Positions 4,300 to 43,454 of a stretch of DNA of 64,000 bases are shown here, in pieces. Both the position numbers and the translations under genes were made by a program. Below the pieces are notes generated by a model. The model was not told the DNA's origin. It saw only the letters and a program-made list of their open reading frames with translations, and did no database searches. Location: the NCBI GenBank assembly GCA_963705505.1, contig CAVPJU010000003.1:24021-88020 (forward strand), read 5' to 3'. The stretch is from an uncultured bacterium (GTDB lineage Bacteria > Desulfobacterota_D > UBA1144 > Nemesobacterales > UBA2774). Position 1 is the first letter of the stretch; each line of letters begins with the position of its first letter.

Positions 4300-4702
4300 T
4301 AATTGCCCTCCGACGTTCAGTCGAACAAACATATTCTTGTGCTTTGCGGACCTGCCCGCGCAGGGAGCAGAATGTTTCTGAAATTATTGGGTCTCTCCGG
4401 GACTCACAGGCATTCTTGCCGCCGGACTAAGCGATAAATACATATAGCGGGCATAGTTAGATATCAGCTCCCGGTTATCCTTGCGCACGGGTGTCTCGTC
4501 TTAATTATTAGTGCACTTACTCGGTTGTGTAAATAGAGATTAAAAATTTGAACGAAAGCAAAAAGAACGGGGACACGCCCGAACCATATATGAATTTCAT
4601 GTTAAACTTATAATTAATAGATGACACCGGACGGATATTGATATATCCTTCTATAAAAATAATAAATTTTGATTATATATTACGGGTAAAGGAGAGCGCC
4701 AG

Positions 4703-4927
4703 ATGGCGACCAAAAAGGAAGCAGCCCCTAAAAAGACTGCAAGCAAAAAGGTAGCGACCCCCAAGACCGCGAGCAAGAAATCCACATCGGCTAAGGAATC
4801 CGTGCGGGACAAAATCGCCAGAGTTGCATACGAGCTTTACGAGAAAAGCGGATACGTTCACGGACGGGACGCCGAACACTGGTTCGAAGCCGAGATAATT
4901 GTATTGGGCAAGAAGAAGAATAAGTAA
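4703..4927 (+). CDS. DUF2934-family small protein with a lysine/alanine-rich histone-H1-like N-terminal tail
   Basis: RBS AAAGGAGAG lies 6 nt upstream of the ATG. The C-terminal motif ARVAYELYEKSGYVHGRDAEHWFEAE matches the DUF2934 signature (YE.WE..G.P.G.D...W..AE). The N-terminus is AKKT repeats. Confidence 0.65.
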   Translation: MATKKEAAPKKTASKKVATPKTASKKSTSAKESVRDKIARVAYELYEKSGYVHGRDAEHWFEAEIIVLGKKKNK

Positions 4928-5396
4928 AACTCACATCGATTCCCAAGGGTCACGGGTCTTCGGTTTCACCGGTTTTTCCAATTCATAAATCTCATCACAG
5001 GCGAACGCATCGGTCCGCAGCGGAAGCATCCGCCGTCTAAACAGGCAACGGCTGGGACACCGCACGGCTCATGCCGCTCCATAGGCCGAACTGCATACAG
5101 TGGTATCACGATTAATAACCCGACTTATATTCTTTCCATAAAAGATGCTATGATTACTTTGCCCGATTAACCGACTCCACTTCCTGACATGCGGAGTGAT
5201 AATAAATAATCGGGTATTCATCAGTAGCTGTCGGCGCTGTAAAATAATACACACAGTGCGTGATGTCCGCGCGTATCCGGGCACACGGGAAATGACGACA
5301 CGAAAATAAGAGAGGAGGATATAAGGGCTTAGACATCCGGACGTCCCTGAGACCGGGCGCCGGTCGAACCCCGGCAGACGCCGAGCCCCTATCACC

Positions 5397-8075
5397 ATGA
5401 GTACAGGAATCAAACTCACGGCAGAAGAGAAGAGACTGAGAGAGGACCAGGAGAAAAAGGCGTACTGGAAGAAGTGGGGACCCTACTTGAGCGAAAGGCA
5501 GTGGGGGACCGTAAGGGAGGACTACAGCCCCGGGGGCACGGCGTGGGAATACCTGCCCCACGACCACGCCCGCTCGCGCGCATACAGGTGGGGGGAGGAC
5601 GGTATCGCAGGCATCTCCGACAACCACCAGAGGCTCTGTTTCGCGATCGCCCTCTGGAACGGGCACGACCCGATACTGAAGGAGAGGCTCTTCGGGCTCA
5701 CGGGCGACGAAGGCAACCACGGCGAGGACGTCAAGGAATATTACTATTATCTCGATAACACCCCGTCCCACGCTTACATGAAGTGCCTCTACAAATACCC
5801 TCACAGGGCTTACCCGTATGACGAACTCGTCGAGGTGAATAAAAAGAGGAGCCGTGACGACCCCGAGTACGAGCTCATAGATACGGGCGTGTTCGACGAA
5901 GACCGGTACTTCGACGTGTTCGTCGAGTACGCGAAGAAGTCCCCCGAAGATATCCTCATTCTCATTACCGTTGCAAACAGAGGGCCCGCTGAAGCCGTGC
6001 TCCACCTCCTCCCCACGCTCTGGTTCAGGAACACATGGTCATGGAAGGGAGGGGAAAAACCCTCTCTCCGGTACGCGGAGTCGGAAGAAAAATTAAAGGT
6101 GATAGAAGCCTCGCACCCCGCGTTCGGCAAGATGTGGTTCTACTGCGACAATCCGGGAGGGCTGCTCTTCACGGAAAACGAAACGAATTTCGAGAGGGTT
6201 TTCGGCTCGCCGAACGAATGCCCCTATGTAAAAGACGGCATCAACGACTGCATAGTCGGGGGCAGGGAGAGCGCCGTCAACAGCAAATGCACGGGGACAA
6301 AGGTGTCCGCCCATTACACCCTTACTATACCGCCGGGAAAATCCCAGACGGTTAAGCTCAGGCTTTCGGACACGATAAACCTGATTGACCCCTTCGGAAA
6401 ACTCTACGATACCGTCTTCGCGAAACGGAAGAAGGAAGCGGACGAGTTTTACAGGAGGGTCTGCCCGTACACGCTGCCGGAGGACCTCGGGAGCATACAG
6501 AGACAGGCGTTCGCCGGGATGCTCTGGACGAAGCAGTTCTATTACTACGTAGTCGAAGACTGGCTTAACGGAGACCCGCTCGACCCCCCTCCTCCAGAGT
6601 CGAGGAAGCAGGGAAGGAACCACAACTGGATACACCTCTACAACGAAGACATTCTCTCCATGCCCGACAAGTGGGAATACCCCTGGTTCGCCGCATGGGA
6701 CCTCGCCTTTCATACCGTAACGTTTTCGCTCATCGACCCCGATTTCGCCAAGCGCCAGCTCATGCTCCTCACGAGGGAATGGTATATGCACCCGAACGGC
6801 CAGATACCCGCTTACGAGTGGGCGTTCAGCGACGTGAACCCCCCCGTCCACGCGTGGGCCGCATGGAGGGTATACAACATCGAGCACAAGATGTTCGGGA
6901 GGAAAGACATCCATTTCCTGGAAAGGGTGTTTCAAAAACTCCTCCTCAACTTCACGTGGTGGGTCAACAGAAAGGACGCGGAGGGAAAGAACGTGTTCGA
7001 GGGAGGGTTCCTCGGACTCGACAACATAGGGGTCTTCGACAGGAACGCGAAGCTCCCCTCGGGAGTGATACTCGAGCAGGCTGACGGCACGAGCTGGATG
7101 GGGATGTATTGCCTCAATATGCTTGCTATAGCGATCGAGCTCGCGAAGCACAATGCGAGCTATGAAGACATAGCAAGCAAGTTCTTCGAGCACTTCCTCT
7201 ACATCGCTAGGGCGATAAACCTCCCCGAAAGGGGACACGACGGTCTCTGGGACGACGAAGACCAGTTCTACTACGACGTGCTCCACCTCCCCAACGGAAA
7301 CCACCTCCCCTTGAAGGTGCGCTCCATGGTGGGCCTCATACCGCTCTACGCGATAGAGACGATCGAGCCCGATGTGCTCGTGAAGCTCAAGGGGTTCAGG
7401 CAGAGAATGGAGTGGTTTATAGAGAACAGGCCGGACCTCGGGGAGAACGTCGCGTCCATGGAAGAAAAGGGTGTGGGCGAGAGAAGACTGCTTTCTATCG
7501 TCGATCAGGACAAGCTGAGACAGATACTGAGAAAGATGCTCGACGAGAATGAGTTCCTGAGCCCCTACGGCATACGCGCTCTCTCGAAATACCACAGGGA
7601 CAGCCCTTATGAGTTCCGCGTCGCCGAATACGACTACACAGTGGCGTACGAGCCCGCGGAATCGACGAGCGGACTCTTCGGAGGGAACTCCAACTGGAGG
7701 GGGCCAATATGGTTCCCCGTGAACTTCCTCCTGATCGAGTCGCTGCAGAAATTCCACTACTACCTGGGGGACAGCTACAAGGTCGAATGCCCGACCGGGT
7801 CGGGGAAGTATATGACCCTCTGGGAGGTGGCTAAGGAGATATCCCACAGGCTCGTCAGGATATTCAAGAAGGACGAGTCCGGAAGGAGGGCCGTTTACGG
7901 GGGCACAGAGAAATTCCAGACGGATCCGTACTGGAGCAGCTACATAAATTTCTACGAGTACTTTCACGGGGACAACGGCGCGGGCATAGGCGCGAGCCAT
8001 CAGACGGGCTGGACCGGAATCGTAGGCAAGCTCATCCGTCAGTCGGGGGAATACGGCACAATAGACGAAATATAA
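5397..8075 (+). CDS. Large cytoplasmic six-hairpin (alpha/alpha)6 glycoside hydrolase, GH63-like (MOGS/YgjK/mannosylglycerate-hydrolase superfamily)
   Basis: The 892-aa ORF has coding-type periodicity throughout, a conserved N-terminal [18 protein letters not shown] block, and a C-terminal catalytic-domain pattern ([28 protein letters not shown]) typical of GH63/GH37-like six-hairpin glycosidases. The exact substrate cannot be assigned. Confidence 0.6.
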
Positions 8076-26675: not shown

Positions 26676-26777
26676 TGGCTGAGGCAATGGAGCAAGGTAG
26701 AAACCGTAAAAGGACACTATGTGTCTGTGTTTGACTTTAGCCAAGATTATCTGTACTTTATTGATTGAGGAGCGTAT

Positions 26778-30400: not shown

Positions 30401-30430
30401 ACTCGGTTTCTTCCCTACTCCGCATCATGC

Positions 30431-30535
30431 CTAATAATAATGTCATTGCGAGGGAGCGTATGTGGCGACCGCGGCAATCTCATAAAAGGCGAGATCGCCA
30501 CGTAGCTTCGCTACTCGCGATGACAGAAAAAAGAG
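30431..30535. repeat. Family-A palindromic intergenic element (GTCATTGCGAG...GGCAATCTCA...GAGATCGCCACG...CTCGCGATGAC)
   Basis: A roughly 100-nt imperfect palindrome. Arm mismatches are T/C changes compatible with G-U pairing in an RNA. A second copy lies at 36736-36800. Confidence 0.5.
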
Positions 30536-30544
30536 GTGCCCCGC

Positions 30545-31462
30545 TTAGTCTTTCTTCCTCTTCCGCCCGCTCACAGATTTCAACAACCATCCGACGATTG
30601 TGTCCACGGTGAAGGAGGGGTTTTCCATGCAGTCGTGCTTGGCCCCGGGGATGAACGATAGTTCAGCTTTTTTGTTCCCCGATTTTTTCAGTATGCCGAG
30701 AAGCTCCTGAACTTCCTCCGCCGCGACGACGTCGTCCCTCTCCCCGTGTATGAACAGCACCGGGACCTTCACGCCCGGAATTATCTCGTTCGTCTTCGCG
30801 TTGAGCGCCTCGGGGCTCCTCATGTACCACCACGTCCTGTAAGTGAACATCTCAGCGTCAGACGGGTTGAACGAAGGCCCCCACGCCCTGTACACGATGA
30901 ATATCCTGTCGTTCTTAGTCTCCGAAGGGTCGTGGCTGAGCACCTTTTTCGCTATATCGTATATGTGCTCGTAGGAGGGGATGCTATTCCACTTATCGAG
31001 CCTCCGCTTGTGGGAGAGCGGCAGGGACGAGGAGCACCCTTCGAGAATAAGCCCTTTCACGTTCTTATGCGCCCCGCGAACGGCGTAATATACGGTGATA
31101 TTCGCCCCGAGGCTCCAGCCGAGGACATAGATTTTTTTAAAGCCTTCACCGACGAGGGCATCGACCGCGGCTTCTATGTCGAGGACCGAGTCGTCGAATA
31201 TGCCTCCCCCGAATATCTGGCCCGTGAACGCGAGTCTTGTATTTATAGACAGCGAGCTAATACCCCGCTCGACGAGCGCGTTCGGGAGGAGTCTCGGAGT
31301 CCCCCTCGCGAGGAAATGCCCGAGCACCCCGTGGACGAGGAGCACTATGGGAGAGTTATAGAGGTCTTTTTCCTTTTTGAATTCGCCCGACACGAGGACC
31401 GCGTTTATAAGAAAACCGTCCGCGGCGTTAAAGGTGAGTAGTCTTCTTTGTCTCGGAACCAT
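30545..31462 (-). CDS. Alpha/beta-hydrolase fold protein (GWSLG nucleophile elbow)
   Basis: 305 aa with GXSXG (GWSLG), a downstream Asp and a His (GAKHD). RBS GGGGA is upstream. It is the second gene of a tandem paralog pair. Confidence 0.7.
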   Translation of the reverse strand: MVPRQRRLLTFNAADGFLINAVLVSGEFKKEKDLYNSPIVLLVHGVLGHFLARGTPRLLPNALVERGISSLSINTRLAFTGQIFGGGIFDDSVLDIEAAVDALVGEGFKKIYVLGWSLGANITVYYAVRGAHKNVKGLILEGCSSSLPLSHKRRLDKWNSIPSYEHIYDIAKKVLSHDPSETKNDRIFIVYRAWGPSFNPSDAEMFTYRTWWYMRSPEALNAKTNEIIPGVKVPVLFIHGERDDVVAAEEVQELLGILKKSGNKKAELSFIPGAKHDCMENPSFTVDTIVGWLLKSVSGRKRKKD

Positions 31463-31477
31463 TTTGCGGCATCCCCG

Positions 31478-32380
31478 CTAGCTTTTGAATCTCTTGTCGA
31501 GCCACCTGACGATGATCTCCCCGAGCTCTTCTTCTTTGCCCTCGAACGTGTGCCCCGCGTTTACGTAGAAAGCGGAGACGTCCTGGTTTCCCGCCTGTAT
31601 CGCGATGTCGGCGAGCCTGTGCGTCTCCTCGGGCTTTACGACGTCGTCATACCAGCCCTGTATCAGGAGGAGCGGCAGCTTTATCCTCTCCATCTTGAGA
31701 TACGCTTTGGCGGTGTCGGCCTCGGGCCCGGCGAGGAACCACCACGTCTTATACGTGTAGATCTCGGTGTGCCAGGGGAGGTAGGTGTTCCCCCGGCCTT
31801 TATAAATCAGGATCGTGCGGTCGTGCTGTGAATTATAAGGGTCGGGCTTCAGTATCTCCTTCGACTCTTCATATACCTCGTCGTAGGATGGCTCGCTCCT
31901 CCACCTGTTCCAGCGCTTCCTTATGGACTCGGGCATCGAATAGGGAGTGGCGAGCGACATGACTCCTTTCAGGTGCGGGTACCGCTCGGGGTCGTTCCTG
32001 AGATACGCGTACCTGAGCACTATGCACGTGCCGAGGCTGTAGCCGGAAATTATGATTTTTTTATACCCCATGCCGACCAGGTAATCGACGGCGCTGTCTA
32101 TCTGCGGCATCACGTCGTCTATTATCCCGTAGCCGAAGAAGAGGCCGAAGTTAGCCATGCGTGTGTTTATGGCGAGGGAGGAATAGCCGCCCTCGGCGAG
32201 TATCGGAGGGAGGAATCGCTGGCTCCCGTCGAGGAAATTCCCGAGGAAGCCGTGGACATGGACAATCGCCGTGTCCTTTTCCGGAAGACGGTCGTCCCTG
32301 ACAGTGCTGTGGTAGTAGAGGGCGTCTATCTTGCCGTCGCCCGAGGGTATGGACACAAGCTCCTGCTCCATGTATTTCAT
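31478..32380 (-). CDS. Alpha/beta-hydrolase fold protein, paralog of the downstream gene (GYSLG nucleophile elbow)
   Basis: Same architecture as the 30545-31462 gene, with the same domain order, the HVHGFLG/LVHGVLGHFL oxyanion block and TYKTWW/TYRTWW, at roughly 30% identity by eye. The start is ambiguous: ATG at 32380, or TTG at 32398 in the ORF track. Confidence 0.65.
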   Translation of the reverse strand: MKYMEQELVSIPSGDGKIDALYYHSTVRDDRLPEKDTAIVHVHGFLGNFLDGSQRFLPPILAEGGYSSLAINTRMANFGLFFGYGIIDDVMPQIDSAVDYLVGMGYKKIIISGYSLGTCIVLRYAYLRNDPERYPHLKGVMSLATPYSMPESIRKRWNRWRSEPSYDEVYEESKEILKPDPYNSQHDRTILIYKGRGNTYLPWHTEIYTYKTWWFLAGPEADTAKAYLKMERIKLPLLLIQGWYDDVVKPEETHRLADIAIQAGNQDVSAFYVNAGHTFEGKEEELGEIIVRWLDKRFKS

Positions 32381-32520
32381 ATCAGTATCCGCACACACAA
32401 TGTTCGCTTATACATGATTTCCGCATTAATCTTCTGCCTAGCCGATAAGAGCGTCATGTGCCTGTGCCGTTCTTATTCTGTGCATTTCCGAATATCATAT
32501 AGAAAAGCATTGTTTAAAAT

Positions 32521-32649: not shown

Positions 32650-32868
32650 TCAAACAGGCTCGGAAAAATAACTGCCGGGCTCGCTTATCACCCTGTCGGC
32701 GAAGTGCTTGGCCTCTTCCCAGGTGGACGACTTCCCGAGCTCAAGCACCCTTTTCGATAAAACGCCCTGCGCGAAAAGGGTCTTCGTCTTCGGGTCCCAG
32801 ATTATCTGCCAGTTGTCCTGGCCGGCCCCCCTCACCCAGCCGAAGGGAAATGTTCCGACTTCGCCCAA
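32650..32868 (-). CDS. Hypothetical 72-aa cytoplasmic protein
   Basis: ORF 89 nt downstream of the secreted Cys-repeat gene on the same strand. No family recognised. Confidence 0.3.
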   Translation of the reverse strand: MGEVGTFPFGWVRGAGQDNWQIIWDPKTKTLFAQGVLSKRVLELGKSSTWEEAKHFADRVISEPGSYFSEPV

Positions 32869-32957: not shown

Positions 32958-33680
32958 TTAATGTATCTCCCTCACGACTTCCCTCGTACCCATGGGGTTC
33001 GTGAAGACGACCTGCGTGAAGCCGCAATCCTTCATCCTCTCCATTGCCGTCCTGCCGTCAGACACGGTAAGCAGGAACGGCGCGATGAACGACTTCTGAA
33101 AAGGGCAGTTGAGGCATGTGAAAACTATGACCTCGTTCAAGTCCCCCCTCGATGAAATCCGGATAGTGGGATAGTCCTTCTGGTACTGCGCGCTCCAGTC
33201 GTTTATGCAGACAAGCCTGTTCGGGTCCGGGAATACTTTCGGCACTTCGACGACGATCGCCTCGGACCCCCTCATCCCCTTGAATACCGCCTGTGTGAAG
33301 CCGCATTCATGGAGCCTCATCATCCCTGTTTCCCCCCTGTACTCGGTCTCGAGGAACGGCTTTACAAAATGCTCGTCGAGGCTGCAGTCGGGACAGTGAA
33401 ATACCGCGATCTCGTTATAGTGCCCCCTCGTAGTCACTTCGATATCCGCCTTCTGCCCCTTATAAAGCTTCGTCCACTGCTCGGCGCAGTAAAGACGCTG
33501 AGGCTCGGGCTCGATATCAGCCTCTTCAACTTTCTCCGCCTCTCCCATGGTCTCGACCGGAGCGTTCTCAGCGCGATGAGAATGCTTGGCGGTACCGGCC
33601 GCGTGGGATTTCGTGATGCCGTAACCGCATAGGAACACCGCTATTAATGTAAAACTCAAGAGACTATGGATATGCCTCAT
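32958..33680 (-). CDS. Secreted protein built from two tandem copies of a roughly 85-aa four-cysteine domain of unknown function
   Basis: Start at ATG 33680 (GGAGG RBS) gives a signal peptide (MRHIHSLLSFTLIAVFLCGYGITKSHA). Repeat 1 runs YCAEQW...HCPDCS...HECGFTQAVF and repeat 2 runs VCINDW...TCLNCP...KDCGFTQVVF. Confidence 0.55.
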   Translation of the reverse strand: MRHIHSLLSFTLIAVFLCGYGITKSHAAGTAKHSHRAENAPVETMGEAEKVEEADIEPEPQRLYCAEQWTKLYKGQKADIEVTTRGHYNEIAVFHCPDCSLDEHFVKPFLETEYRGETGMMRLHECGFTQAVFKGMRGSEAIVVEVPKVFPDPNRLVCINDWSAQYQKDYPTIRISSRGDLNEVIVFTCLNCPFQKSFIAPFLLTVSDGRTAMERMKDCGFTQVVFTNPMGTREVVREIH

Positions 33681-33844
33681 TCCAGTCATCCTCCTCTGTT
33701 CCACTTATTTTACAGCATTTCGAGGATATATGGAATACCTTATAGTAATACATTAATTTCGCCCTAAAACCTACGGGGGATAAAGGAGGAATACTATTTT
33801 GTCCGGCATGTCCCGCTTAAGCTAAAATGTACGGAGCCGGGCAC

Positions 33845-34459
33845 TCAATCAATCCCCGAACGGAGCCCCTCGAGGTCCCTGTGTATCTCCCTCGCCTCCG
33901 ACCTGAACTCGTCGAGGCCCGAGAGCATCCGAGCGTCACAACCCGCCCGTTTCCTTTTGAAAATCGGGGAATGGATGAGACAAACGCCGAGTCCGAGCCA
34001 CGCTCCCCAAAAGACCCACGCAACGAAAACCGACCCGGAGTATATCAATATAAGTAAGCCTATATATTTGCCCGACAGTATCACTAACGGGAAAATGATT
34101 ACTCCCTTCAGCGTCGAAATAATAGCCGATAACAGACCGCCCGACCGCCCGCCTGAACCCGAGAGCCCGCCTCCGAGGCTCGCCCCGGCGAGTATCCCCG
34201 CAAGCAGGGGGAACATCGGCGAGATCAGCAGATATATGAACCCCGATATGAATCCCGTGAATGCCGCCCTCGTTAGCGATACCCCGCTCCCGCTGTAAAT
34301 CGCGGACACGGCGGCGACGCCGGTCAGGAGCGCAGGATAGAAAAACATATGACCGAGAGGCAGGTTATTGAGCAGAGTGTATCCCAGTAAGAATGTTATC
34401 ACTCCCCATGCGCCTGAGAGGAGTACCGGGACTGTGAGTGATTTGAATCGGGCGTTCAT
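33845..34459 (-). CDS. Polytopic membrane protein with a Gly/Ser-rich loop; third gene of the pspA-VWA operon
   Basis: RBS AAAGGAGA upstream. 5-6 TM helices. No family recognised. Confidence 0.5.
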   Translation of the reverse strand: MNARFKSLTVPVLLSGAWGVITFLLGYTLLNNLPLGHMFFYPALLTGVAAVSAIYSGSGVSLTRAAFTGFISGFIYLLISPMFPLLAGILAGASLGGGLSGSGGRSGGLLSAIISTLKGVIIFPLVILSGKYIGLLILIYSGSVFVAWVFWGAWLGLGVCLIHSPIFKRKRAGCDARMLSGLDEFRSEAREIHRDLEGLRSGID

Positions 34460-34517
34460 TTTTATCTCCTTTCAAACGGGGAGCGGTCATTCTCACCGCC
34501 CCCATGGATTCTCTTCT

Positions 34518-35930
34518 CTACTTCTGAGCTTCCCTCGCGTTTGCCTTCTGTTCTTTTATGAGCTTCTTTCCGTCGTCGGATGCAGGAGCAGGCGCTGCGG
34601 GGGACGACATGTTCGTGAGCGCATCTCTAAGCTCCGCTTCCTGCTCCGCGGTCTTCGCGTTCCCGTAGGGGCTCCTGTTGAGGTTCGCGACGCTTTCGTA
34701 GGCCCTCTTTATTTTGGAAACAGCGCTCTCCCTGTCTCCCTCCTCGTACGCCGTGGTCGCCTGGTAGTATTCCCCTGAGGCGTCGACAGATACCCACCTC
34801 GCGGTAACGTCCTTGTTCTCGTTCTGAGCGACCTTGTCCTTATCTTCCGTCACCCGGTAAGAGAGCATCGTGTTAAGCCCCGAGGCTTTGTTCTCCCTGA
34901 GCAGGTCGGTGAATTCGAGGGACGCAGTGCCGAGGTCTTTCATTCCGGCCGCCTCTGCGGGGACCTTGAATTTCACGAGTATGTCCCTCTCCTGACCGCC
35001 GAAGAAATCACCGAGCTTGATCTCGACCTTTCCGCCAGCCGTCTTCGTGTACGTGTAACCGTACACCTCATCGACTGCGACGCCCGGAGCGAGAGCGAGC
35101 TTTATGACGGGGTCCTTCGCGACCGTGGCTGCGATCTGTCCGAACTCCTTTTGAAAAATGCCCGTAAGCTGCGTGGGTGATTCTATGAAGTAGTAATTCC
35201 CCGCTCCGTACTCGGCGAGGTTCATCATGAGGTTCTCGTCGTAATCGACTCCGAGACCCATCGTCGTGATGTGTATGCCCTTCTCGGACGCCCGGCTCGC
35301 AACCCTGCCGAGCTCGCCCAGGTCCGTGATACCGACGTTCGCGAGCCCGTCGGAAAGGAGTATGACGCGGTTTACGTATCCCCCGCGCTCTATAGAATCC
35401 AGCTGCTCTATGCCCGCCGTGAGTCCGCCCGAGAGGTTGGTAGATTCAGTAGGATAGAGCGAATCGACGACCGTTATCGCTCCGTCCTTATTCTTTAAGA
35501 ACTGTATCGGGTACAGGAGCTCGACCTCCGTCGAATATGCCACGACCGCGAGCCTGTCCTCTTTATTGAGCCCGGCGATTATCTGCTTCGCCGCCTCCTT
35601 CGCGTACTCGATCTTCCCCTTATCACTCATCGAGCCGCTGCGGTCTATAACGAGGACGAGGTTAACGGGTGTCCTCTGCTGGAGTTGGCCCTCCTTGCCC
35701 TTTATCCTCATGTTGAGCATCAATTCCCGGTCCGAGCCTTTCTCGACGAACGGGTGGCTCAGCCTGAGGTCCCACGTGACCGTATCGGTATTTGAAGTCG
35801 TCACCGTTTTCTTGTCCTCCTCGTTTGGTTTTGGTATAGTCGGGAAGGCCGAGATATATTTCCCTCCCGCGAGTATTGCAAATACGATCAGGAAAATCCC
35901 GATTATGAGCTTATTCTTATCCTTATTCAT
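34518..35930 (-). CDS. Membrane-anchored von Willebrand factor type A (VWA) domain protein
   Basis: N-terminal TM helix. The VWA MIDAS motif DRSGSM...S...T...D is present. Its ATG overlaps the pspA stop (ATGA). Confidence 0.8.
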   Translation of the reverse strand: MNKDKNKLIIGIFLIVFAILAGGKYISAFPTIPKPNEEDKKTVTTSNTDTVTWDLRLSHPFVEKGSDRELMLNMRIKGKEGQLQQRTPVNLVLVIDRSGSMSDKGKIEYAKEAAKQIIAGLNKEDRLAVVAYSTEVELLYPIQFLKNKDGAITVVDSLYPTESTNLSGGLTAGIEQLDSIERGGYVNRVILLSDGLANVGITDLGELGRVASRASEKGIHITTMGLGVDYDENLMMNLAEYGAGNYYFIESPTQLTGIFQKEFGQIAATVAKDPVIKLALAPGVAVDEVYGYTYTKTAGGKVEIKLGDFFGGQERDILVKFKVPAEAAGMKDLGTASLEFTDLLRENKASGLNTMLSYRVTEDKDKVAQNENKDVTARWVSVDASGEYYQATTAYEEGDRESAVSKIKRAYESVANLNRSPYGNAKTAEQEAELRDALTNMSSPAAPAPASDDGKKLIKEQKANAREAQK

Positions 35931-36592
35931 TTCTTACCGCCTCCCTTGTTTATATTCTTTTTAAGCATCTCGACTTCTTCCGCGATGAGCTTCTCCTCCC
36001 TCTCCCACGCCTCTTTTTCCTTTTCCCGCGCCATGCTGAAGGACTCGCTCTCCTCTTCCACACGCTCCTCGATCTTCCTGAAAACGCTGAAAGGCTCATC
36101 CGTGAGGGATTCGGGGCATCCGGTGATGTCCTCTTTCCCGGCGGGCGCCCCCTTTGCGAGGCTTATTTCCCTGAGCAGGAGAGTCCGCTTCGTCTTCGCC
36201 GCCTGCACGCGGTTCTCAAGCCCGGCGTACCGCTCTTCATAGTCCCTCAGCTTCGACCTGTCTTTCGTGAGGTTTATGCCGAGCCTCCTCTCCTTCTCTT
36301 CGAGAATCCTCCTCTTCCTCACGGCTTCTCTCGCGTTCTCGTCCATCCCCTTGCCGACGTAATCCTCCGCCCTCTCCTGCCAGTATCCGATCTGCTCGCG
36401 GGTTCTCTTCGAGAGCTTCGCCTGCTCGTCTATCCTGAACCTGAGCGCGCCTATCTTGACCCTCGCTTTCTCGAGCCCCTCCTCCATCTCCTCCACGGCC
36501 TGGTTCAATATCTTCTCCGGGTCCTCCGCCCTCGACACCCAGTCGTTAAACTGAGACTTCACTATCACTCCGACTCTCTTCTTGAATCCCAT
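35927..36592 (-). CDS. pspA: PspA/IM30 (phage shock protein A / ESCRT-III-like) family protein
   Basis: The N-terminus aligns with E. coli PspA (block AEDPEK...QA..EMEE.L...R) and the body is coiled-coil. Strong RBS AAGGAGAG lies upstream of the ATG at 36592. Confidence 0.8.
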   Translation of the reverse strand: MGFKKRVGVIVKSQFNDWVSRAEDPEKILNQAVEEMEEGLEKARVKIGALRFRIDEQAKLSKRTREQIGYWQERAEDYVGKGMDENAREAVRKRRILEEKERRLGINLTKDRSKLRDYEERYAGLENRVQAAKTKRTLLLREISLAKGAPAGKEDITGCPESLTDEPFSVFRKIEERVEEESESFSMAREKEKEAWEREEKLIAEEVEMLKKNINKGGGKK

Positions 36593-36697
36593 GACTTCTC
36601 TCCTTACTGCGGATTTAAGGATTATTACGAACGGGGGGGAGGAAAGTTTTACACACCTAGTGTGTTTCTACGATTGCTGCGTTATTCCTCTGCTTCT

Positions 36698-36870
36698 TAT
36701 TAATTCCCTCCCCTTTGAAGGGGGAGGGTTCGGGTGGGGGTGTCATTGCGAGCGTAGCGAAATGGAGCGCGGCAATCTCAAAGAAACAGAGAGATCGCCA
36801 CGGCCACTCACGTGGCCTCGCGAAGACAGAAACAATTTGTCATTTCGACCGGAGGGAGAAATGACAGGGA
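36698..36870. repeat. Composite repeat cluster: inverted family-B unit (CCCTCCCCTTTGAAGGGGGAGGGTTCGGGTGG), a family-A palindromic element, and an A-prime hairpin (TGTCATTTCGACCGGAGGGAGAAATGACA)
   Basis: Lies between the anti-sigma gene and pspA. All three units recur elsewhere in the window. Confidence 0.5.
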
Positions 36871-36915
36871 AGGCACTGTCAGTTAGTAAGGAGAGATTTA
36901 AGACCGCAAAGATTC

Positions 36916-37947
36916 TCAGTTCACCGGACCCGGCGTGGGGTTCGCACTCCCGAGCCTCTCGACCGACTTCTGCTTGAGCTCCATTATCCTGCTGTTGGCA
37001 AAGGAGGTCTCGGCGGGCGAGACCTGCTGGAGCTGATTGTAATTCATGAGGGCCTTATCGAGCTTCCCCTCCTTCTCGTAGCACTCGGCAAGCGAGCGGT
37101 AGGACTGCGCGCGCACGTATCGAGGCGGCTCGGGATCGGATTTCAACAAATCCTCGTTCGTCTTTATGGAGGACTCGCAGTCCCCCTCCGTCTGCTGCTT
37201 GAGAGCGAGGCTCAGTTGACCGCTATAGTCCTTCACATTCTCGACCGATGCCGCTTCTGATTGCGAGGATGCGGGCACCTCTTCAGGAGCGGATTTTTTC
37301 GCTGCGGTATCGAGGAGCGCCGATTCTTTATTGTCTGCGTCCCGCTCCCTGTCACCCGTCAGGCCCGCTTCATTCCCGGCGGCGGAGTACATTTCCTTAG
37401 ACGGCGGAGGCGGCGCTGCAGGAGCCGGGCTTAGCTGGTTTTCATGAGCCTCCCTCTCGCGCAATGCGAGTGAAGACTCCGCTGATTCGGAATATCGGGT
37501 CGATTCCCTTTTCAATTCAGGGACAGCCTGCCCCCTCGTCTCCATGTGGCTTCCGGGCTCTTTCACCTTGCTCGCCATGACGTCCCTCGAAATCGTATCC
37601 GTGTACGGTCTCTCACCGTGGCCGTAATAGAACCAGACCATGAGCGCGATAGTAGCGGAGAGTGCGGGTATGAGGATCGGCGAATAGGGCCACCTCTTCC
37701 AGAACGGGCGCCTGTCCCCGGCGACCTTTTCCCTCGCGGCTCTGGACAACCTGGCCATGACTTCGGGCGAAGGCTCGGGCAGAGCGGCATCCTCCGTCAC
37801 GGCCCTCCTTATCTCGGCGTATTCCTCGTATTCCCTCATGCACGCTTCACAGCCCCGGAGGTGCTCCATTACGGCGTCCCTCTCTTCAGGGCTAAGCTCG
37901 CCGTGTATAAGCTCGACCAATATCTCGCTGCATCTATCGCAATTCAT
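36916..37947 (-). CDS. Anti-sigma factor: N-terminal zinc-finger (zf-HC2) anti-sigma domain, one TM helix, periplasmic TPR-like C-terminus
   Basis: Motif CDRC...H...C..C within the first 40 aa. A TM helix near residue 95. Starts 9 nt after the ECF sigma stop. Confidence 0.7.
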   Translation of the reverse strand: MNCDRCSEILVELIHGELSPEERDAVMEHLRGCEACMREYEEYAEIRRAVTEDAALPEPSPEVMARLSRAAREKVAGDRRPFWKRWPYSPILIPALSATIALMVWFYYGHGERPYTDTISRDVMASKVKEPGSHMETRGQAVPELKRESTRYSESAESSLALREREAHENQLSPAPAAPPPPSKEMYSAAGNEAGLTGDRERDADNKESALLDTAAKKSAPEEVPASSQSEAASVENVKDYSGQLSLALKQQTEGDCESSIKTNEDLLKSDPEPPRYVRAQSYRSLAECYEKEGKLDKALMNYNQLQQVSPAETSFANSRIMELKQKSVERLGSANPTPGPVN

Positions 37948-37956
37948 CTTTTCCCT

Positions 37957-38547
37957 TTACACCCCTCTCGCTTTCTGCCTGTCCTCAAAATATCCCGACT
38001 CCGCGAAGACCTGCCTCAGCCCCTTGTACGCGTATCTGAGACGGCTCTTTACGGTGCCGAGCGGCGATTCCGTGACCATCGCGATCTCCTCGAGCGATAG
38101 CCCCTCGACTTCTCTCAGTAAAAATACTTCCCTGAACTCCTCTTTCAACCCCTTGACCCCGATATCGATGAGGGCCTTCACTTCGAGATCGAACGCCTTC
38201 TCTTCCTGGTCCCTCTCCTCGCTCCGCACTATCTCGAGGACGACCGCCCCGCCCTCCTCGCCGCCTGAGAGCGGCGCGTCTAACGAGCTGTGCCTCCTGT
38301 AGCTCTCGGTCCGGAGATAATCTATGCAGTGGTTCCGCGCTATGCTGTAAAGCCACGTCGAGAACTTCTGAGACGGGTCGTACCTTTTTCTCCGCTCTAT
38401 CACCTTCAAAAATATCTCCTGGAGCAGGTCCTCCGCCTGGGTCTTCTGCACCCCGGTCATCTTCATAATGAACCTGAGCACACCGGCTCCGTGCCGGCTG
38501 AGGAGAGTGTCGAAGCTCCCCTCGTCGCCCATCTGAAATTTCCGCAT
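37957..38547 (-). CDS. ECF (group 4) RNA polymerase sigma-70 factor
   Basis: Sigma70 regions 2 and 4 are present. I prefer the ATG at 38547 (GAAGAGG RBS) over the GTG at 38592 used by the ORF track. Confidence 0.8.
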   Translation of the reverse strand: MRKFQMGDEGSFDTLLSRHGAGVLRFIMKMTGVQKTQAEDLLQEIFLKVIERRKRYDPSQKFSTWLYSIARNHCIDYLRTESYRRHSSLDAPLSGGEEGGAVVLEIVRSEERDQEEKAFDLEVKALIDIGVKGLKEEFREVFLLREVEGLSLEEIAMVTESPLGTVKSRLRYAYKGLRQVFAESGYFEDRQKARGV

Positions 38548-38792
38548 AGCCTCTTCGTCCGATAATCCGCTTCTCAGCTCTATTCCAAACACCTGGCGTC
38601 CGTCCGGGACCGCATGCTTTATAGGTTAATTATACGATGGAAAAGGGAGAAAGTTTTAAAGCCTGCCGTTAGATTCGAATTACAACACAGGGAAGCTCGT
38701 AAAGGAATAGTGGAGTACCGAGAAAAAGAAAAGGGCAGCCGGACGGCTGCCCCTCTCGAATTGATGGTTTATCTAAGATGTGGAACTGCAGG

Positions 38793-39613
38793 CTAGGAAT
38801 GTGATGCCCGGCGTCTGCGGAGCGCAATCAAAGCCAGGATTCCGAACGTCCCCGCAGTAAGTATCATCCCCCATTCGGAGAGCGTCGGCACATCAACCTG
38901 AAGCAGGCCGCCGTCTATGAACACATTGTCCAGCTGACAGAACGCGGGACCCGAAAAATTCTCGGGAACAATCCAGTCGAAGCTTATCCTGACTCTTTGA
39001 CCGGCAAACCCGCTGACATCCACCGTGGCCGTTTGATTTCCCCCCGTATCGGGTAATGCAGTAGTCCCCGCTACCGCTGTAAGAATAAGGTCGGTTTGAA
39101 GCGGAGCGCCTCCGCGTGCCGGCTCTATATTTACTTCAAAAGTCCTGTTTAGAGTAGCTCCGAAATTGAGCAAGTCCCAGCCGCACTGGTATTCGAACGA
39201 CAACGTGGTCGCTCCCGGCGCTAGTCCTACATCCTGAGCTAAGCTTATTGTTCCGGGTCCGTTCCCGTCGAAACCTGTCAACGCCGCAAAAACTCCCTGC
39301 GGAGGGTCGCTTGTGAATAAACCGAAATCCGGGGATATCCCCGCTACGCCTACCTGGAGGGGGAAAAAGGGATCGGACAGATCCTGCGTGACCCAGCCAG
39401 CTAAAAGTTGCCTCTTTCGAATCCGCAATTTATGACGGGGTTCGGTAAGGCCTCGCAATTAAATCCGTCGACTGCGTAAGCGCTTTCCGCGGGCCTGAAA
39501 AATATTAAAACAGAGAAGATCGAAAGAATTAAAACCGATTTAAGAACAGCGGAGCCAAAAACCGCAATCACGCGACTCTGCAATAAGCCGCTCACTTTAA
39601 CTTTATCCATCAT
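38793..39613 (-). CDS. Secreted protein with a C-terminal IPTL-CTERM sorting signal, interrupted by a frame shift within the 39404-39458 overlap (ORFs 39401-39613 and 38793-39458)
   Basis: The upstream ORF supplies a signal peptide. The downstream ORF ends PTLSEWGMILTAGTFGILALIALRRRRAS, which matches the IPTL-CTERM motif (PTLSEWG + TM + Arg cluster). The two frames overlap across 39401-39458; a G4 run lies in that window. Confidence 0.45.
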
Positions 39614-39807
39614 CCTTCCTCCCTGGGATTATATATATTCATGCATAATTCTATTTCTTTATCCATTTTACTATAAATTCATATGCAATAGAAGGAGGAA
39701 TATTCAAGCAACATGACGGGGCGGTATTATGTTGAATTCCAGCCGCCATACTCGGCGAAGAAGGACGAAGTGAAGATCAGGCTTTTCTTTAATGTGTGAG
39801 CCGAAGC

Positions 39808-39841
39808 GCATGTGACAAGTGACAGTCGTGCAGGGTATATA
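39808..39841. repeat. 34-bp direct repeat, left copy (GCATGTGACAAGTGACAGTCGTGCAGGGTATATA)
   Basis: Identical to 40955-40988. Together they flank the AlbA_2 gene. Confidence 0.7.
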
Positions 39842-39951
39842 GTTCTGCGAAGGGAGGGTAAGTCGATATTATCTTGTTTTTCACACACAGCATCATCGAA
39901 GAATTGAATTAACTCAATAGTTTAATTATTCTATAACCGGAAATTCTACCA

Positions 39952-40767
39952 ATGAATAATTTTTTTGATAAAGCAACATACACCGAAGACGATATCAATG
40001 ATTTGATTAATAACCAGATTGAGGAGGCAATAGATTTAGAATTTAAAGAAGCTGGTGCATTAAATAATACTGACTCAAATAAAAACGAAATCTCTAAAGA
40101 TGTCGCTTCTTTTGCAAATTCGGCAGGTGGAATAATTGTATATGGTATTAGTGAAACAGAGCATAAGGCAACTTCAACATCATTGATTGACGGTAATAGA
40201 ATCACAAAAGAGTGGCTTGAACAAGTAATTCATTCAAACATAAAACAAAAGATAGACAATATAGAAATATTTCCTGTCAGATTTGATAATGATATCGCTC
40301 GGTCCGTGTATATCGTAAAGATACCGCAAAGCAATTCTAGTCCTCACATGTCTCGTGACAACAAATACTATAGAAGATATAACTTCCAATCAGTTCCAAT
40401 GGAAGAATATGAAGTCAGAAATCTTTATTACATGACTCATAGAACAGAACTTGAAATTGTAGAGGTTGCTATAGCAGGTTACGGAAGCACGGGAACTCTA
40501 AAAAGTGGTTTACACATTATAACTTTTAACCTGCAAATGAAGGTATATAATTCGGGTAAATCCATTGAGAACAATTATAAAATTAAACTCCATATACCTA
40601 ATATAATCCTTGCTGCCCGCGAACCGAAAATGACTAAATATTCACTTGAACATCAAACTGAAAAATATTCACTCATATCTTTTCCTAATTGTTCACCGCT
40701 ATTTCCCGAAGAGCCTGCGTATTCGGAAACCTCCAGTGTTGTAATTTCAAAAAAAACCTTACGATAA
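39952..40767 (+). CDS. AlbA_2/Schlafen-like putative DNA-binding domain protein (N-terminus) with an uncharacterised C-terminal domain; low-GC accessory gene
   Basis: The N-terminus matches the AlbA_2 pattern (LEFKEAGALN...ISKDVASFANSAGGIIVYGISE). The gene is markedly AT-rich with different codon usage from its neighbours and is bracketed by the 34-bp direct repeats. Confidence 0.55.
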   Translation: MNNFFDKATYTEDDINDLINNQIEEAIDLEFKEAGALNNTDSNKNEISKDVASFANSAGGIIVYGISETEHKATSTSLIDGNRITKEWLEQVIHSNIKQKIDNIEIFPVRFDNDIARSVYIVKIPQSNSSPHMSRDNKYYRRYNFQSVPMEEYEVRNLYYMTHRTELEIVEVAIAGYGSTGTLKSGLHIITFNLQMKVYNSGKSIENNYKIKLHIPNIILAAREPKMTKYSLEHQTEKYSLISFPNCSPLFPEEPAYSETSSVVISKKTLR

Positions 40768-40954
40768 TCCAGAGAATTTTAAACTGAAGTCGTTATTATA
40801 TTACTCCAATGGCATTAAAGAATATTTATATGACCTGAGAGAACTCCTAATCATAGAGGATAACCTCATCTGTAAAGAAATGTTTGTGGGTGATTGAATT
40901 ATTCTCTTTAGGTTTTACGATCTGTTTCGTATGTGACTTGCCCCGTAATCCCCC

Positions 40955-40988
40955 GCATGTGACAAGTGACAGTCGTGCAGGGTATATA
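40955..40988. repeat. 34-bp direct repeat, right copy (identical to 39808-39841), followed by a partial inverted copy (CTGTCACTTTGTCACTTGG)
   Basis: Exact match, then an imperfect inverted repeat of the TGTGACAAGTGACAG core at 40999-41017. Confidence 0.7.
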
Positions 40989-41158
40989 CCCCGGACATCT
41001 GTCACTTTGTCACTTGGTGCCATCCCTATACCCTGCATCGGCGGCGGATTGCGCAAACTCTACTTTCTTTTCCCTTCCTTTTGTAATCATTGTTAGATAT
41101 TATTTAGACGTATTTCAATATACCTCGCGCGTCTCTGTAGGGGTGACGGAGGCAGTGA

Positions 41159-41398
41159 GTGAGGGTAATAATCTGCGGGTCTCCGCAGTGGACTTATGAC
41201 GAAATAGTAAAGGACGAGGTGGTCCGTCTGCGCCGGGAGTCGAGATTGTCCGGCAGGAAGCTCCTTATCATTCACGGCGCGACCGTCCCGAAACCGTTGC
41301 GCATGAGTATTGCAGAAACTCGGCATCGATACCATGGTACAGAATGCCGTCTGGGTAATGGGGCAGAACTGCTATTTCGCGGAGAACCGAGATCATGA
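41159..41398 (+). pseudogene. Possible remnant of a DUF2493/SLOG-family gene (MRVIICGS...IIHG...)
   Basis: 79-aa ORF whose N-terminus resembles DUF2493 (MRV..CGSR.WTD....HGG), but it is truncated and divergent. Confidence 0.2.
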
Positions 41399-41741
41399 GG
41401 AAGCTTTAATCCACAAATGGCCCTTGTGGGGAACACTACCATGCTTACCTTGAACAATTAGATTCTGCACGCGGCTTGCTCTTGGCCGCCCGATGATCGA
41501 TTACAAGAGCATGACTTGAGAGATGTTTATGAAGGTAGGATACTGGTCCAGAGGCTAGTTCAGTTTTAAAAGTCATAAATCTGGCGGAGTTCAAATTACG
41601 CAAAATCATAAGAGATGTACCAGAGAAGGAAAAAGAAGTTCAAGATGCTTTTGAGAATCTTCTCATAGGTGCAGATATACCTTATTCTAAGGAGGCGGAA
41701 AGCATTGAATACTCTACTAAAAATTCCTCAACTATCACAAA

Positions 41742-41900
41742 CCCGACCTGGTCATCTGCTTCGCCCTGTCGTTCAAGGAGAGCGCTGTCGCCGCCGATAT
41801 GATAAAGAGAGCGGAGGTGAAGGGGATCAAGACCAAGGCGATAGACTACGTGAGCATCGTGAAACGCAACAGCGACGATATCCCGATAAGGCCGGTGTGA
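41742..41900 (+). pseudogene. 3' remnant (52 codons, GC-rich) of a host gene whose 5' part has been replaced by AT-rich foreign DNA
   Basis: The in-frame peptide PDLVICFALSFKESAVAADMIKRAEVKGIKTKAIDYVSIVKRNSDDIPIRPV* has no start codon and a sharp GC shift at about 41742. Upstream AT-rich frames encode unrelated peptide fragments. Confidence 0.3.
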
Positions 41901-42047
41901 AGCCATAGGTGATGACCCGAAGGGAAGGAAATGTAATCCCCCTGCGGATTCCAATCATAAAACCACACTACGTGTGCCCATTAGAAAAATATCCCCCTTA
42001 TGGCATAATTATTTCTCCCTAAACAAAGCACACAAGGAGGAGTTTTT

Positions 42048-43454
42048 ATGGCCAGTAAAAATACGAGAACAGAATACGATTCGATGGGGGAGATGGAAGT
42101 CCCCTCAAGCGCATATTACGGCGCCCAGACGGCGAGGGCGATAGAGAATTTCCCCATCAGCGGCATACGCAAGCACGCCCTGCTCGTGAAGGCGATGGGG
42201 ATGATAAAGCTCGCCGGCGCGGAGGCCAACATGGAGCTCGGTCTCCTGAGCAAGAAGACAGGCAGCGCGATAGTGAGGGCGGCAAAGGAGGTCATCGACG
42301 GGAAGCTCGACGACCACTTCATCCTCGACGTTTTCCAGACGGGGTCCGGCACGTCCACCAACATGAACACGAACGAAGTGATAGCCAACCGCGCGAACGA
42401 AATAATCGGGGGCAGGAAAGGAGACAAGTCGGGTATCCATCCGAACGACCACGTTAACATGGGACAGTCGAGTAACGACGTTTACCCGACGGCGATACAC
42501 GTCTCGGCGATCCTCGCGATAAACGAGATACTCATGCCCGCGCTCAAGAACCTCGAGAAGGCGCTTTCAGCAAAGGCGCGCGAGTTCAACAAGATAGTCA
42601 AGATCGGACGCACGCACCTCCAGGACGCTACCCCCATCAGGCTCGGCCAGGAGTTCAGCGGCTACGCGAGCATGATAACGCACGGCATCAGGAGAGTGGA
42701 GCACGCGAGGGAAGAGCTGTCAGAGCTCGCGATAGGCGGCACCGCTGTCGGCACCGGGATCAACACGCATCCGAAATTCGCCGGGCTCGTCGTGAAGAGG
42801 CTCAGCAAAATGACGGGGACGAAGCTGAGGGAGGCGGAGAACCATTTCGAGGCCCAGGGATCCAAGGACGCCGTAGTCGAGGCGAGCGGGTCTCTCAAGA
42901 CCCTCGCCGTGAGCCTCATGAAGATAGCGAACGATATAAGGTGGCTCGGGAGCGGCCCGCGCTGCGGGATAGGGGAGATAATGATTCCTGCCGTCCAGCC
43001 GGGCTCGTCGATCATGCCGGGGAAGGTGAACCCCGTCATACCCGAAGCCGTGTGCCAGGTGGCGGCGCAGGTCATAGGGAACGACCTCACGATTACCATA
43101 GGCGGACAGTTCGGGAACTTCGAGCTAAACGTCATGATGCCGGTGAAGGGGCACAACCTTCTCCAGTCCATAGAGCTCCTGGGCAAGGTCTCTCAGGTAT
43201 TCACCGACAAGTGCGTGAAGGGTATAAAGGCCGACAGGAAGCGCTGCGAGGAGATGATAGAGAAGAGCCTCGCCATGTGCACGAGCCTGGCGCCCGTCAT
43301 CGGATACGATAGCGCCGCCAAGATAGCGAAGGAGGCCTACGAGACGGGCAAGACCGTGAGGCAGGTCGCTCTCGAGAAGAAGGTGCTCCCGGCTGAGAAG
43401 CTGAAGCAGCTCCTCGACCCCTGGTCTATGACGGAGCCCGGGACAAAGAAGTAG
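42048..43454 (+). CDS. aspA: Aspartate ammonia-lyase (aspartase)
   Basis: RBS AAGGAGGAG. Contains the fumarase/aspartase signature GSSIMPGKVNP. The N-terminal and internal blocks (AYYGAQTARAIENFPISG, NMNTNEVIANRANEI, GRTHLQDATPIRLGQEF) match E. coli AspA more closely than FumC. Confidence 0.75.
   Translation: MASKNTRTEYDSMGEMEVPSSAYYGAQTARAIENFPISGIRKHALLVKAMGMIKLAGAEANMELGLLSKKTGSAIVRAAKEVIDGKLDDHFILDVFQTGSGTSTNMNTNEVIANRANEIIGGRKGDKSGIHPNDHVNMGQSSNDVYPTAIHVSAILAINEILMPALKNLEKALSAKAREFNKIVKIGRTHLQDATPIRLGQEFSGYASMITHGIRRVEHAREELSELAIGGTAVGTGINTHPKFAGLVVKRLSKMTGTKLREAENHFEAQGSKDAVVEASGSLKTLAVSLMKIANDIRWLGSGPRCGIGEIMIPAVQPGSSIMPGKVNPVIPEAVCQVAAQVIGNDLTITIGGQFGNFELNVMMPVKGHNLLQSIELLGKVSQVFTDKCVKGIKADRKRCEEMIEKSLAMCTSLAPVIGYDSAAKIAKEAYETGKTVRQVALEKKVLPAEKLKQLLDPWSMTEPGTKK

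Follow-up and report, generated by a model that had tools for sequence, protein, structure and literature searches.

The window examined here, a 64,000-nt stretch of contig CAVPJU010000003.1 (assembly GCA_963705505.1) from an uncultured bacterium, carries on its minus strand a gene cluster in which a sigma factor of the extracytoplasmic function (ECF) type and its anti-sigma factor are followed by a PspA/IM30 family protein (pspA), an exported protein with a von Willebrand factor A (VWA) domain and a metal ion-dependent adhesion site, MIDAS (vwa), and an orphan membrane protein with six transmembrane (TM) segments (tm6, encoding TM6). A predicted two-site promoter motif lies ahead of both sigma and pspA, and is conserved in related loci. 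We consider it likely that the locus is a two-promoter ECF sigma/anti-sigma envelope-stress regulon, in which PspA, TM6 and the VWA protein have the roles set out below. The single-pass zf-HC2 anti-sigma factor would hold sigma at the membrane, and its periplasmic TPR-like domain would be the likely site of input. Freed sigma would transcribe from both AAACTTT-N12-TCGTA promoters. One of these, P_sig, would drive the sigma/anti-sigma operon, which amounts to positive autoregulation, and the other, P_pspA, would drive pspA-vwa-tm6 and probably continue through p248, p72 and two hydrolase genes.

Gene calls were taken from a list of open reading frames (ORFs) and domains were assigned with Pfam. 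The neighbourhoods of VWA orthologues, together with tblastn, gave the conserved gene order sigma, anti-sigma, (pspA), vwa, (tm6), p248, p72, hyd1, hyd2, in which the genes in parentheses are variably present. A sequence-only reading had placed the system at 33845-38592. The gene calls within that span stood, and the ORF list and Pfam bore out a sigma/anti-sigma pair upstream of pspA on the same strand. The span did not cover the whole unit, however, as four further conserved genes reach 30545, and P_sig and the terminator that appears to insulate it (38633-38757) also lie outside it.

The sigma gene (37957..38592) has a GTG start and encodes 211 aa. The protein contains Sigma70_r2 (1.7e-18) and r4_2/r4 matches, and region 3 is absent; because regions 2 and 4 alone are present, it was assigned to the ECF type (group 4). 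The NCBIfam sigma70-ECF model TIGR02937 was matched at 98.9 bits (cutoff 42.9), and the SigW and RpoE models ranked among its best NCBIfam matches, each below its equivalog cutoff. The adjoining anti-sigma gene and a predicted AAC...CGT-type promoter ahead of sigma are also as expected of an ECF system. The anti-sigma gene (36916..37947, 343 aa) begins 10 nt past the sigma stop. Its product matched zf-HC2 (PF13490, 9e-8, 32.5 bits against a cutoff of 22.2) and contains the motif H29-x3-C33-x2-C36, which points to a ZAS-like class I domain. A single TM segment at residues 88-109 is followed by an acidic Ser/Ala/Pro-rich linker, predicted to be periplasmic, and by a C-terminal TPR-like domain with a weak Pfam TPR match at residues 274-305. 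The composition of zf-HC2, TM segment and TPR-like domain had been recognised in the sequence-only reading and was upheld. Both the N- and C-terminal domains are kept in distant loci; the linker varies.

The promoter motif was found by comparing the regions upstream of sigma and pspA across loci, the other intergenic DNA being unalignable. The pattern AAACYTT-N11-13-TCGTA has exactly two matches on both strands of the 64 kb, where 0.08 were expected. These are the predicted promoters P_sig (38633..38656), 41 bp upstream of the sigma GTG, and P_pspA (36626..36649), 34 bp upstream of the pspA ATG; both read AAACTTT-N12-TCGTA, and the -10 element of P_sig runs into TATAAT. The looser pattern AAAC-N16-CGTA is not significant by itself in the window (3 matches against 1.3 expected). 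The B. subtilis sigmaW consensus is AAAC-N16-CGTA, and the motif of the locus has this same geometry, which is typical of ECF promoters. It had been proposed that the ECF sigma factor drives pspA and that its regulon be defined by a motif search upstream of pspA; that search located the motif ahead of sigma and pspA only.

Comparison with related loci (designated L) extended this result. A slightly relaxed pattern gave 24 instances in 15 loci, with the consensus tTAAAaCtTT-N~11-tTCGTAtTAat. Related loci have one motif upstream of sigma and one upstream of pspA, apart from L010 and L011, which begin too near pspA to show the sigma region, L089, in which the -35 of the sigma site departs from the pattern, and L086, which has one extra relaxed-pattern match on the opposite strand inside vwa. 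The motif is kept upstream of sigma in 10 loci. It lies 21-35 bp upstream of pspA and is kept there in 10 pspA-containing loci besides the window, and in the five loci that lack pspA (L004, L005, L086, L088 and L090) it precedes vwa by 33-43 bp. The leader that follows TCGTA (ATAAT..TAAATC) is homologous whether pspA or vwa comes next. Within the 323-bp spacer between the anti-sigma gene and pspA (36593-36915), only the promoter and leader (~36599-36651) were conserved in L001 and L010 by blastn. The motif also persists ahead of pspA in L087, though insertion sequence (IS) elements have replaced the sigma genes there. This shared motif, in the window and its relatives, gives the proposed ECF control of pspA strong comparative support, and we regard it as well supported in silico.

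Locus L087 has features of its own. IS1595 and rve transposase genes occupy the sigma/anti-sigma position (4438-6001), and the N-terminus of its pspA contains an in-frame TAG (AEDP*); the ECF-type promoter is intact. It may be a decaying copy, or a copy controlled by a sigma factor encoded elsewhere.

P_sig appears to be insulated from upstream transcription by a strong predicted intrinsic terminator of the upstream IPTL-CTERM gene (38728..38757, minus strand), whose 13-bp stem includes 8 GC pairs and leads into a run of T; a weak counter-transcribed RNA (ctRNA)-like Rfam match on its hairpin fell below the gathering threshold. No canonical terminator was found between the anti-sigma gene and pspA, so read-through from P_sig is possible. 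The ribosome-binding site of pspA, AAGGAG (36600-36605), lies 7 nt ahead of the ATG, in agreement with the strong site noted in the sequence-only reading.

To establish how far the arrangement is conserved, gene order was compared across loci. Named matches place the lineage in Candidatus Dadabacteria/'Thermodesulfobacteriota' metagenome-assembled genomes (MAGs). Among 16 orthologous loci, pspA is directly upstream of vwa in 11 (the window, L001, L006-L011, L087, L089 and L091), and the linkage persists where identity has fallen to 49-52% for VWA and 34-37% for PspA, so that the pspA-vwa linkage on which the sequence-only reading depended was retained in related genomes. The order pspA-vwa-tm6 is kept within these loci, with tm6 in every pspA-containing locus for which downstream sequence is available. 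In the window pspA (35927..36592, 221 aa) and vwa (34518..35930, 470 aa) are joined by the stop/start overlap ATGA, as had been reported and as was verified in the sequence. In 9 of 9 pspA-containing relatives examined, the overlap is ATGA or TAATG and the vwa Shine-Dalgarno sequence lies inside the 3' end of pspA.

The remaining five loci (L004, L005, L086, L088 and L090) lack both pspA and tm6. In a bootstrapped neighbor-joining tree of the VWA proteins, L004 and L005 were basal, and the pspA-containing L011 and L087 branched next (81% support). The other pspA-less loci, L086, L090 and L088, were nested beside the main pspA-containing clade with 100% support. The simplest history consistent with this tree would be that pspA and tm6 were gained once and later lost together in some lineages: the two genes would have been added on either side of vwa in one Dadabacteria-like branch, behind the same promoter and leader, and since then kept or lost as a pair. 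Because the five pspA-less loci have the promoter directly before vwa, the VWA protein is indicated as the conserved sigma target, and comparative evidence points to vwa as the ancestral conserved ECF target and to pspA and tm6 as an accessory pair. The envelope-stress module of PspA and VWA protein that had been proposed is supported, with the correction that its conserved target is the VWA protein and not PspA.

Beyond the orthologous loci, 66 remoter VWA loci (29-45% identity) were inspected, and none had a PspA_IM30 ORF directly before the VWA gene. On that count (0/66), the idea that PspA generally partners this VWA family was rejected. Nine of the 66 adjoin an ECF sigma factor, and a trio made up of an ECF sigma factor, a zf-HC2/TPR anti-sigma factor and an exported VWA protein recurs in L065 (5097-8915) and in the Planctomycetota loci L073 and L074 (8001-10643). 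L065 is from an unclassified MAG and has a LEA_2 protein gene between the anti-sigma and VWA genes; in the Planctomycetota the VWA gene comes first. The recurrence of the trio suggests an older functional link between this type of anti-sigma factor and the VWA family.

The VWA domain was recovered with Pfam at 5e-22. The MIDAS residues D96-x-S98-x-S100, T164 and D194 are invariant in the 16 orthologues and are predicted to form a metal site. From its N-terminus the protein comprises a signal peptide or anchor, then the VWA domain between two beta-sandwiches, and a C-terminal helical bundle with a conserved basic tail. Orthologues have classical cleavable signal peptides at the same N-terminal alignment columns, for example ...LSALA|KAG and ...HAGA|KSL, and the protein is predicted to be Sec-exported. 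An AlphaFold2 (AF2) model (mean predicted local distance difference test score, pLDDT, 78.5) showed the VWA fold, and its best Foldseek matches were the bacterial VWA structure 4fx5, archaeal ArnB/ArnAB, the Sec23/24 trunk and ITIH1. For 4fx5, ArnB (5a8j/8s05) and the Sec23/24 trunk the fold is alike (TM-score 0.63-0.69 on the query, E 1e-20 to 1e-25) at a sequence identity of 16-18%; ArnB and Sec23/24 are cytoplasmic, whereas the VWA protein has a signal peptide. We propose that the VWA protein resides in the periplasm and would bind a ligand there through its metal site.

A related proposal is that the VWA protein acts on the anti-sigma factor from the periplasm, as a co-sensor or by modulating it through feedback, comparable to RseB or CpxP, with PspA and TM6 as the true effectors. 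The MIDAS could bind the acidic linker, for instance, or the basic C-terminal tail could bind the TPR domain. The recurrence of the sigma/anti-sigma/VWA trio outside the lineage (L065, L073 and L074, with an ECF sigma factor at 9 of the 66 remote loci) speaks for this, as do the fused VWA-DUF3520 of ECF289 anti-sigma factors (PMC7826278) and the conservation of the C-terminal tail of the VWA protein and of the TPR domain in the anti-sigma factor, beside a variable linker. On the other hand, in L088 the promoter and vwa stand with no sigma or anti-sigma gene next to them, and a co-sensor role is compatible with the two-promoter regulon and does not exclude it. As an alternative to that regulon we judge it rather unlikely, though worth keeping in mind.

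PspA matched PF04012 (PspA_IM30) over residues 5-211 (3e-22, 79.8 bits against a cutoff of 33.9), which places it in the family. It scored below the NCBIfam equivalog cutoffs for both PspA and LiaH, and was consequently treated as a family member and not as a PspA or LiaH orthologue. Residues 1-182 align to residues 1-180 of the Vipp1/PspA chains 8qfv, 8qbw and 6zvr (E ~1e-16), and this alignment covers the N-terminal amphipathic helix and the coiled-coil hairpin of the family. The protein has neither a TM segment nor a signal peptide and is cytoplasmic.

The tm6 gene (33845..34459) encodes 204 aa. In its AF2 model (pLDDT 79), six TM helices are followed by a C-terminal helix at residues 180-202, and the loop GGGLSGSGGRSGG at residues 97-107 accords with the Gly/Ser-rich loop of the six-TM protein described in the sequence-only reading. 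The most conserved soluble feature is the C-terminal amphipathic helix, GLxEFRSEAxEIxRDL, predicted to be cytoplasmic. TM6 had no Pfam match even at E<=10 and no NCBIfam match, and its model found nothing below E=1 with Foldseek against the PDB. Only 36 homologues were identified; a profile search of 1.84 billion proteins returned 24 representative clusters, all of the same small family. The gene is present in 10 of 10 pspA-containing loci with downstream sequence and absent from 5 of 5 pspA-less loci. On account of this strict co-occurrence and the conserved C-terminal helix, TM6 is the best candidate for the membrane partner of PspA. We propose that the site of PspA action is the inner membrane's cytoplasmic face, where PspA would be recruited or regulated via the C-terminal helix of TM6, in parallel with LiaI-LiaH and YdjG/H-PspA.

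A more elaborate scheme would join PspA, TM6 and the exported VWA protein in one trans-envelope device. Through its MIDAS the VWA protein would sense an envelope defect that depends on a cation or ligand, and it would dock on TM6, whose cytoplasmic helix would nucleate ESCRT-III-like polymerisation of PspA at that spot (ESCRT, endosomal sorting complex required for transport), and the VWA protein would feed back on the anti-sigma TPR domain. If true, this would be a new and spatially targeted form of PspA recruitment with a previously unknown partner family; we judge it improbable.

The overlap of pspA and vwa raises the further alternative that their products form a complex on the cytoplasmic face of the membrane, the VWA protein being held by an uncleaved anchor and acting jointly with ESCRT-III-like PspA in membrane remodelling. 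The conserved translational coupling through the ATGA overlap could be read in this way, the best structural matches include the cytoplasmic ArnB/ArnAB and Sec23/24 coat proteins, and the charge around the N-terminal helix of the window's VWA protein is only weakly asymmetric. Yet cleavable signal peptides of textbook form are seen in the orthologues, the same promoter precedes vwa in five loci that lack PspA, and the same fold occurs in extracellular proteins (ITIH1 and pilus adhesins). We consider such a complex very unlikely. Because the VWA protein is exported and PspA has no export signal, direct contact between them is improbable, and the two would be co-regulated and translationally coupled but located in different compartments. 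The ATGA overlap more probably sets expression ratios than reflects contact between PspA and the VWA protein. A VWA/MIDAS protein beside pspA was confirmed by Pfam and the invariant MIDAS; the interaction with PspA that the sequence-only reading had put up for testing is topologically unlikely.

The spacer between the anti-sigma gene and pspA holds structured palindromic repeats, as the sequence-only reading had stated. The 13-bp palindrome CACACTAGGTGTG (CACAC-TAG-GTGTG, 36652..36664), which it had placed about 60 bp upstream of the pspA ATG, was located 60-72 bp upstream; the exact match is unique in the window (0.00 expected) and abuts the -35 of P_pspA. The CACAC-N3-GTGTG arms are kept beside the -35, with differing loops, in L006, L007 and L008. 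The pattern is also dispersed: it recurs in the window at 41964-41976, 84 bp upstream of fumC (42048), with a variant at 26714-26726, and L006 and L008 have 4-5 copies each, far more than 10 specified bases would give by chance. It is restricted to the closest relatives: L004, L005, L009-L011 and L086-L088 lack it, although they retain the AAAC...TCGTA motif; the scan covered the loci other than L089-L091. A role as a conserved promoter element was rejected, since the palindrome is missing from loci that keep the promoter. It could be a lineage-specific operator or regulator site, or a small repeat. That pspA-vwa is under a housekeeping sigma factor or a palindrome-binding regulator, with the ECF pair controlling other genes, is the least probable reading of all: in four close loci the palindrome does lie against the -35, its arms kept and its loops differing, and TAATAAT/TATAAT-like sequence occurs in the -10 regions, but those eight loci keep AAAC...TCGTA without the palindrome, the spacer contains no sigma70-type promoter by consensus scan and no TGGCAC-N5-TTGC-like sigma54 site with up to 2 mismatches allowed, and the motif is common to sigma's own upstream region in every locus but L089, where the -35 deviates.

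Two further elements make up the repeat block. An approximately 85-nt nested-palindrome repeat (36741..36828, minus strand) folds as RNA at -40.6 kcal/mol (z = -4.4) and has the terminal inverted repeats TGTCnTCGCGAG / CTCGCAATGACA. Other copies were found after the hyd2 stop (30430..30520, minus strand; approximate ends, diverged, detected as blastn segments and by alignment) and in L008 (2147-2240), at a different site upstream of sigma. The element looks like a dispersed repeat of the MITE (miniature inverted-repeat transposable element) or REP (repetitive extragenic palindromic) kind, and the copy at 30430-30520 may mark the 3' end of the unit. A hairpin, CCCTCCCCCTT-C-AAAGGGGAGGG, lies at 36706..36728 on the minus strand (11-nt inverted repeat, 91% complementary, no T-tail) and is part of this variable block; L001 and L007 have comparable G/C-rich hairpins, though not at homologous positions. 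None of the intergenic repeats matched an Rfam family.

Four genes downstream of tm6 probably extend the target transcript. The first, p248 (32958..33704), encodes an exported protein with an N-terminal hydrophobic segment at residues 12-30 and two tandem repeats of ~85 aa, which are 38% identical (E 7e-25) and have four cysteines each; it is kept downstream of vwa or tm6 in most loci. The second, p72 (32650..32868), encodes a small soluble protein of 72 aa, and was found at 43-78% identity in each orthologous locus that reaches that far, the pspA-less loci included, with the exception of L088. Neither p248 nor p72 has a Pfam or NCBIfam family. They are followed by two paralogous alpha/beta-hydrolase genes: hyd1 (31478..32398, 306 aa, no signal peptide, assigned by Pfam alpha/beta-hydrolase families), which is 61-92% identical and syntenic in all loci but L088, and hyd2 (30545..31462, 305 aa, Pfam Hydrolase_4 and Abhydrolase_6), which starts 15 nt after hyd1 and shares the synteny of hyd1. 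From pspA to hyd2 no terminator-like site was called in any intergenic gap; two weak matches inside genes, fewer than in shuffled sequence, were disregarded. The conserved sigma target is predicted to comprise vwa, the two genes of no known family (p248 and p72) and the two hydrolase genes, and the transcript would probably pass through pspA-vwa-tm6 to hyd2.

Several observations weigh against the two-promoter regulon or parts of it. The promoters are predictions from sequence conservation, and their -10 regions merge into sigma70-like TATAAT/TAATAAT, so that housekeeping transcription is possible. The CACAC-N3-GTGTG arms that abut the -35 in the closest relatives hint at a further regulator. 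The co-transcription of p248 to hyd2 is uncertain, as the gaps ahead of p248, p72 and hyd1 are 140, 89 and 251 bp, with neither motif nor terminator found in them. Lastly, the proposed PspA-TM6 interaction derives from co-occurrence in related loci that are not phylogenetically independent, and no similarity of TM6 to LiaI, to PspB/C or to a solved structure could be detected.

Genes on the other side of sigma differ between loci. Two genes lie in the stretch 38793-41960, between the sigma operon and fumC (42048-43454): one (38793-39458) for an IPTL-CTERM sorting-signal protein, and one (39952-40767) for a Schlafen/AlbA_2 protein, which falls in a patch of 41% GC compared with ~54% elsewhere. 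As fumC is much nearer the sigma operon in L001 and L086, this stretch looks like an insertion. A large AsmA/YhdP-like gene lies divergently upstream of sigma in L086 (1195-3894), L089 (1-2287) and L090 (182-2878). It belongs to an outer-membrane lipid transport family, which fits the envelope theme, and is not at that position in the window.

The regulation and membrane targeting of PspA/IM30 proteins are poorly understood beyond a few model organisms, and the locus offers a compact and well-defined case. Its sharply conserved two-site promoter and sigma/anti-sigma pair constitute a directly testable regulon, and the operon offers a candidate new membrane anchor for PspA, with the 6-TM family and the MIDAS-VWA protein both absent from the accessible portions of published PspA surveys. 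It would also be an example of an existing ECF regulon recruiting a PspA module, and it links the recurrent ECF sigma/TPR anti-sigma/VWA trio of several phyla to envelope stress. Interest is limited by the precedent for the principle, by the narrow distribution and by evidence that is computational throughout; since the organisms are uncultured, the impact will stay moderate short of reconstituting the parts in a heterologous host. The remark in the sequence-only reading that a VWA protein is not among the familiar PspA partners (pspF, pspBC) agrees with the available parts of the text and supplements of two large PspA neighbourhood surveys, which do not mention it (PMC11237479, PMC9239133), and our literature searches found no PspA-VWA operon.

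Among known systems, classical Psp (PspF/sigma54/PspABC) shares with the locus the PspA/IM30 effector and an expected response to inner-membrane stress. Control there is exerted by PspA sequestering an enhancer-binding protein, whereas here it would fall to the ECF sigma/anti-sigma pair. The nine cluster proteins include no PspB or PspC Pfam match, and there is no sigma54-type site in the spacer and neither pspF nor any AAA+ regulator gene among the neighbours. The Lia system of Firmicutes (LiaI-LiaH) also pairs a PspA homologue with a small polytopic membrane protein that could be its anchor, a role suggested here for TM6 by co-occurrence; it is under LiaFSR two-component control instead of an ECF sigma factor, and TM6 has no Pfam match. 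In ECF289 systems the anti-sigma factor itself includes a fused VWA-DUF3520 module (Casas-Pastor et al. 2021, PMC7826278), so that an ECF sigma factor is likewise tied to a VWA domain outside the cytoplasm. Here the zf-HC2/TPR anti-sigma factor and vwa are separate, the latter under the target promoter; by Pfam, the anti-sigma factor has no VWA domain and the VWA protein has neither DUF3520 nor an anti-sigma domain.

The closest precedent is that of B. subtilis, where ECF sigmaW controls pspA-ydjGHI and the YdjG/H membrane proteins anchor PspA (PMC3498285, PMC8581546), and ECF control of pspA is thus already known. Both systems combine an ECF sigma factor and a single-pass anti-sigma factor with a pspA-first operon that includes membrane-protein genes, and a predicted ECF-type promoter lies directly upstream of pspA in the window. 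The B. subtilis operon includes the SPFH/Band-7 protein YdjI, and no protein of the cluster has a Band_7/SPFH Pfam match; the partners encoded here are instead the exported VWA protein and the orphan 6-TM protein. The locus differs further in that its sigma factor scores below the SigW equivalog cutoff, its lineage is uncultured and of Gram-negative type, and its sigma genes adjoin the target operon.

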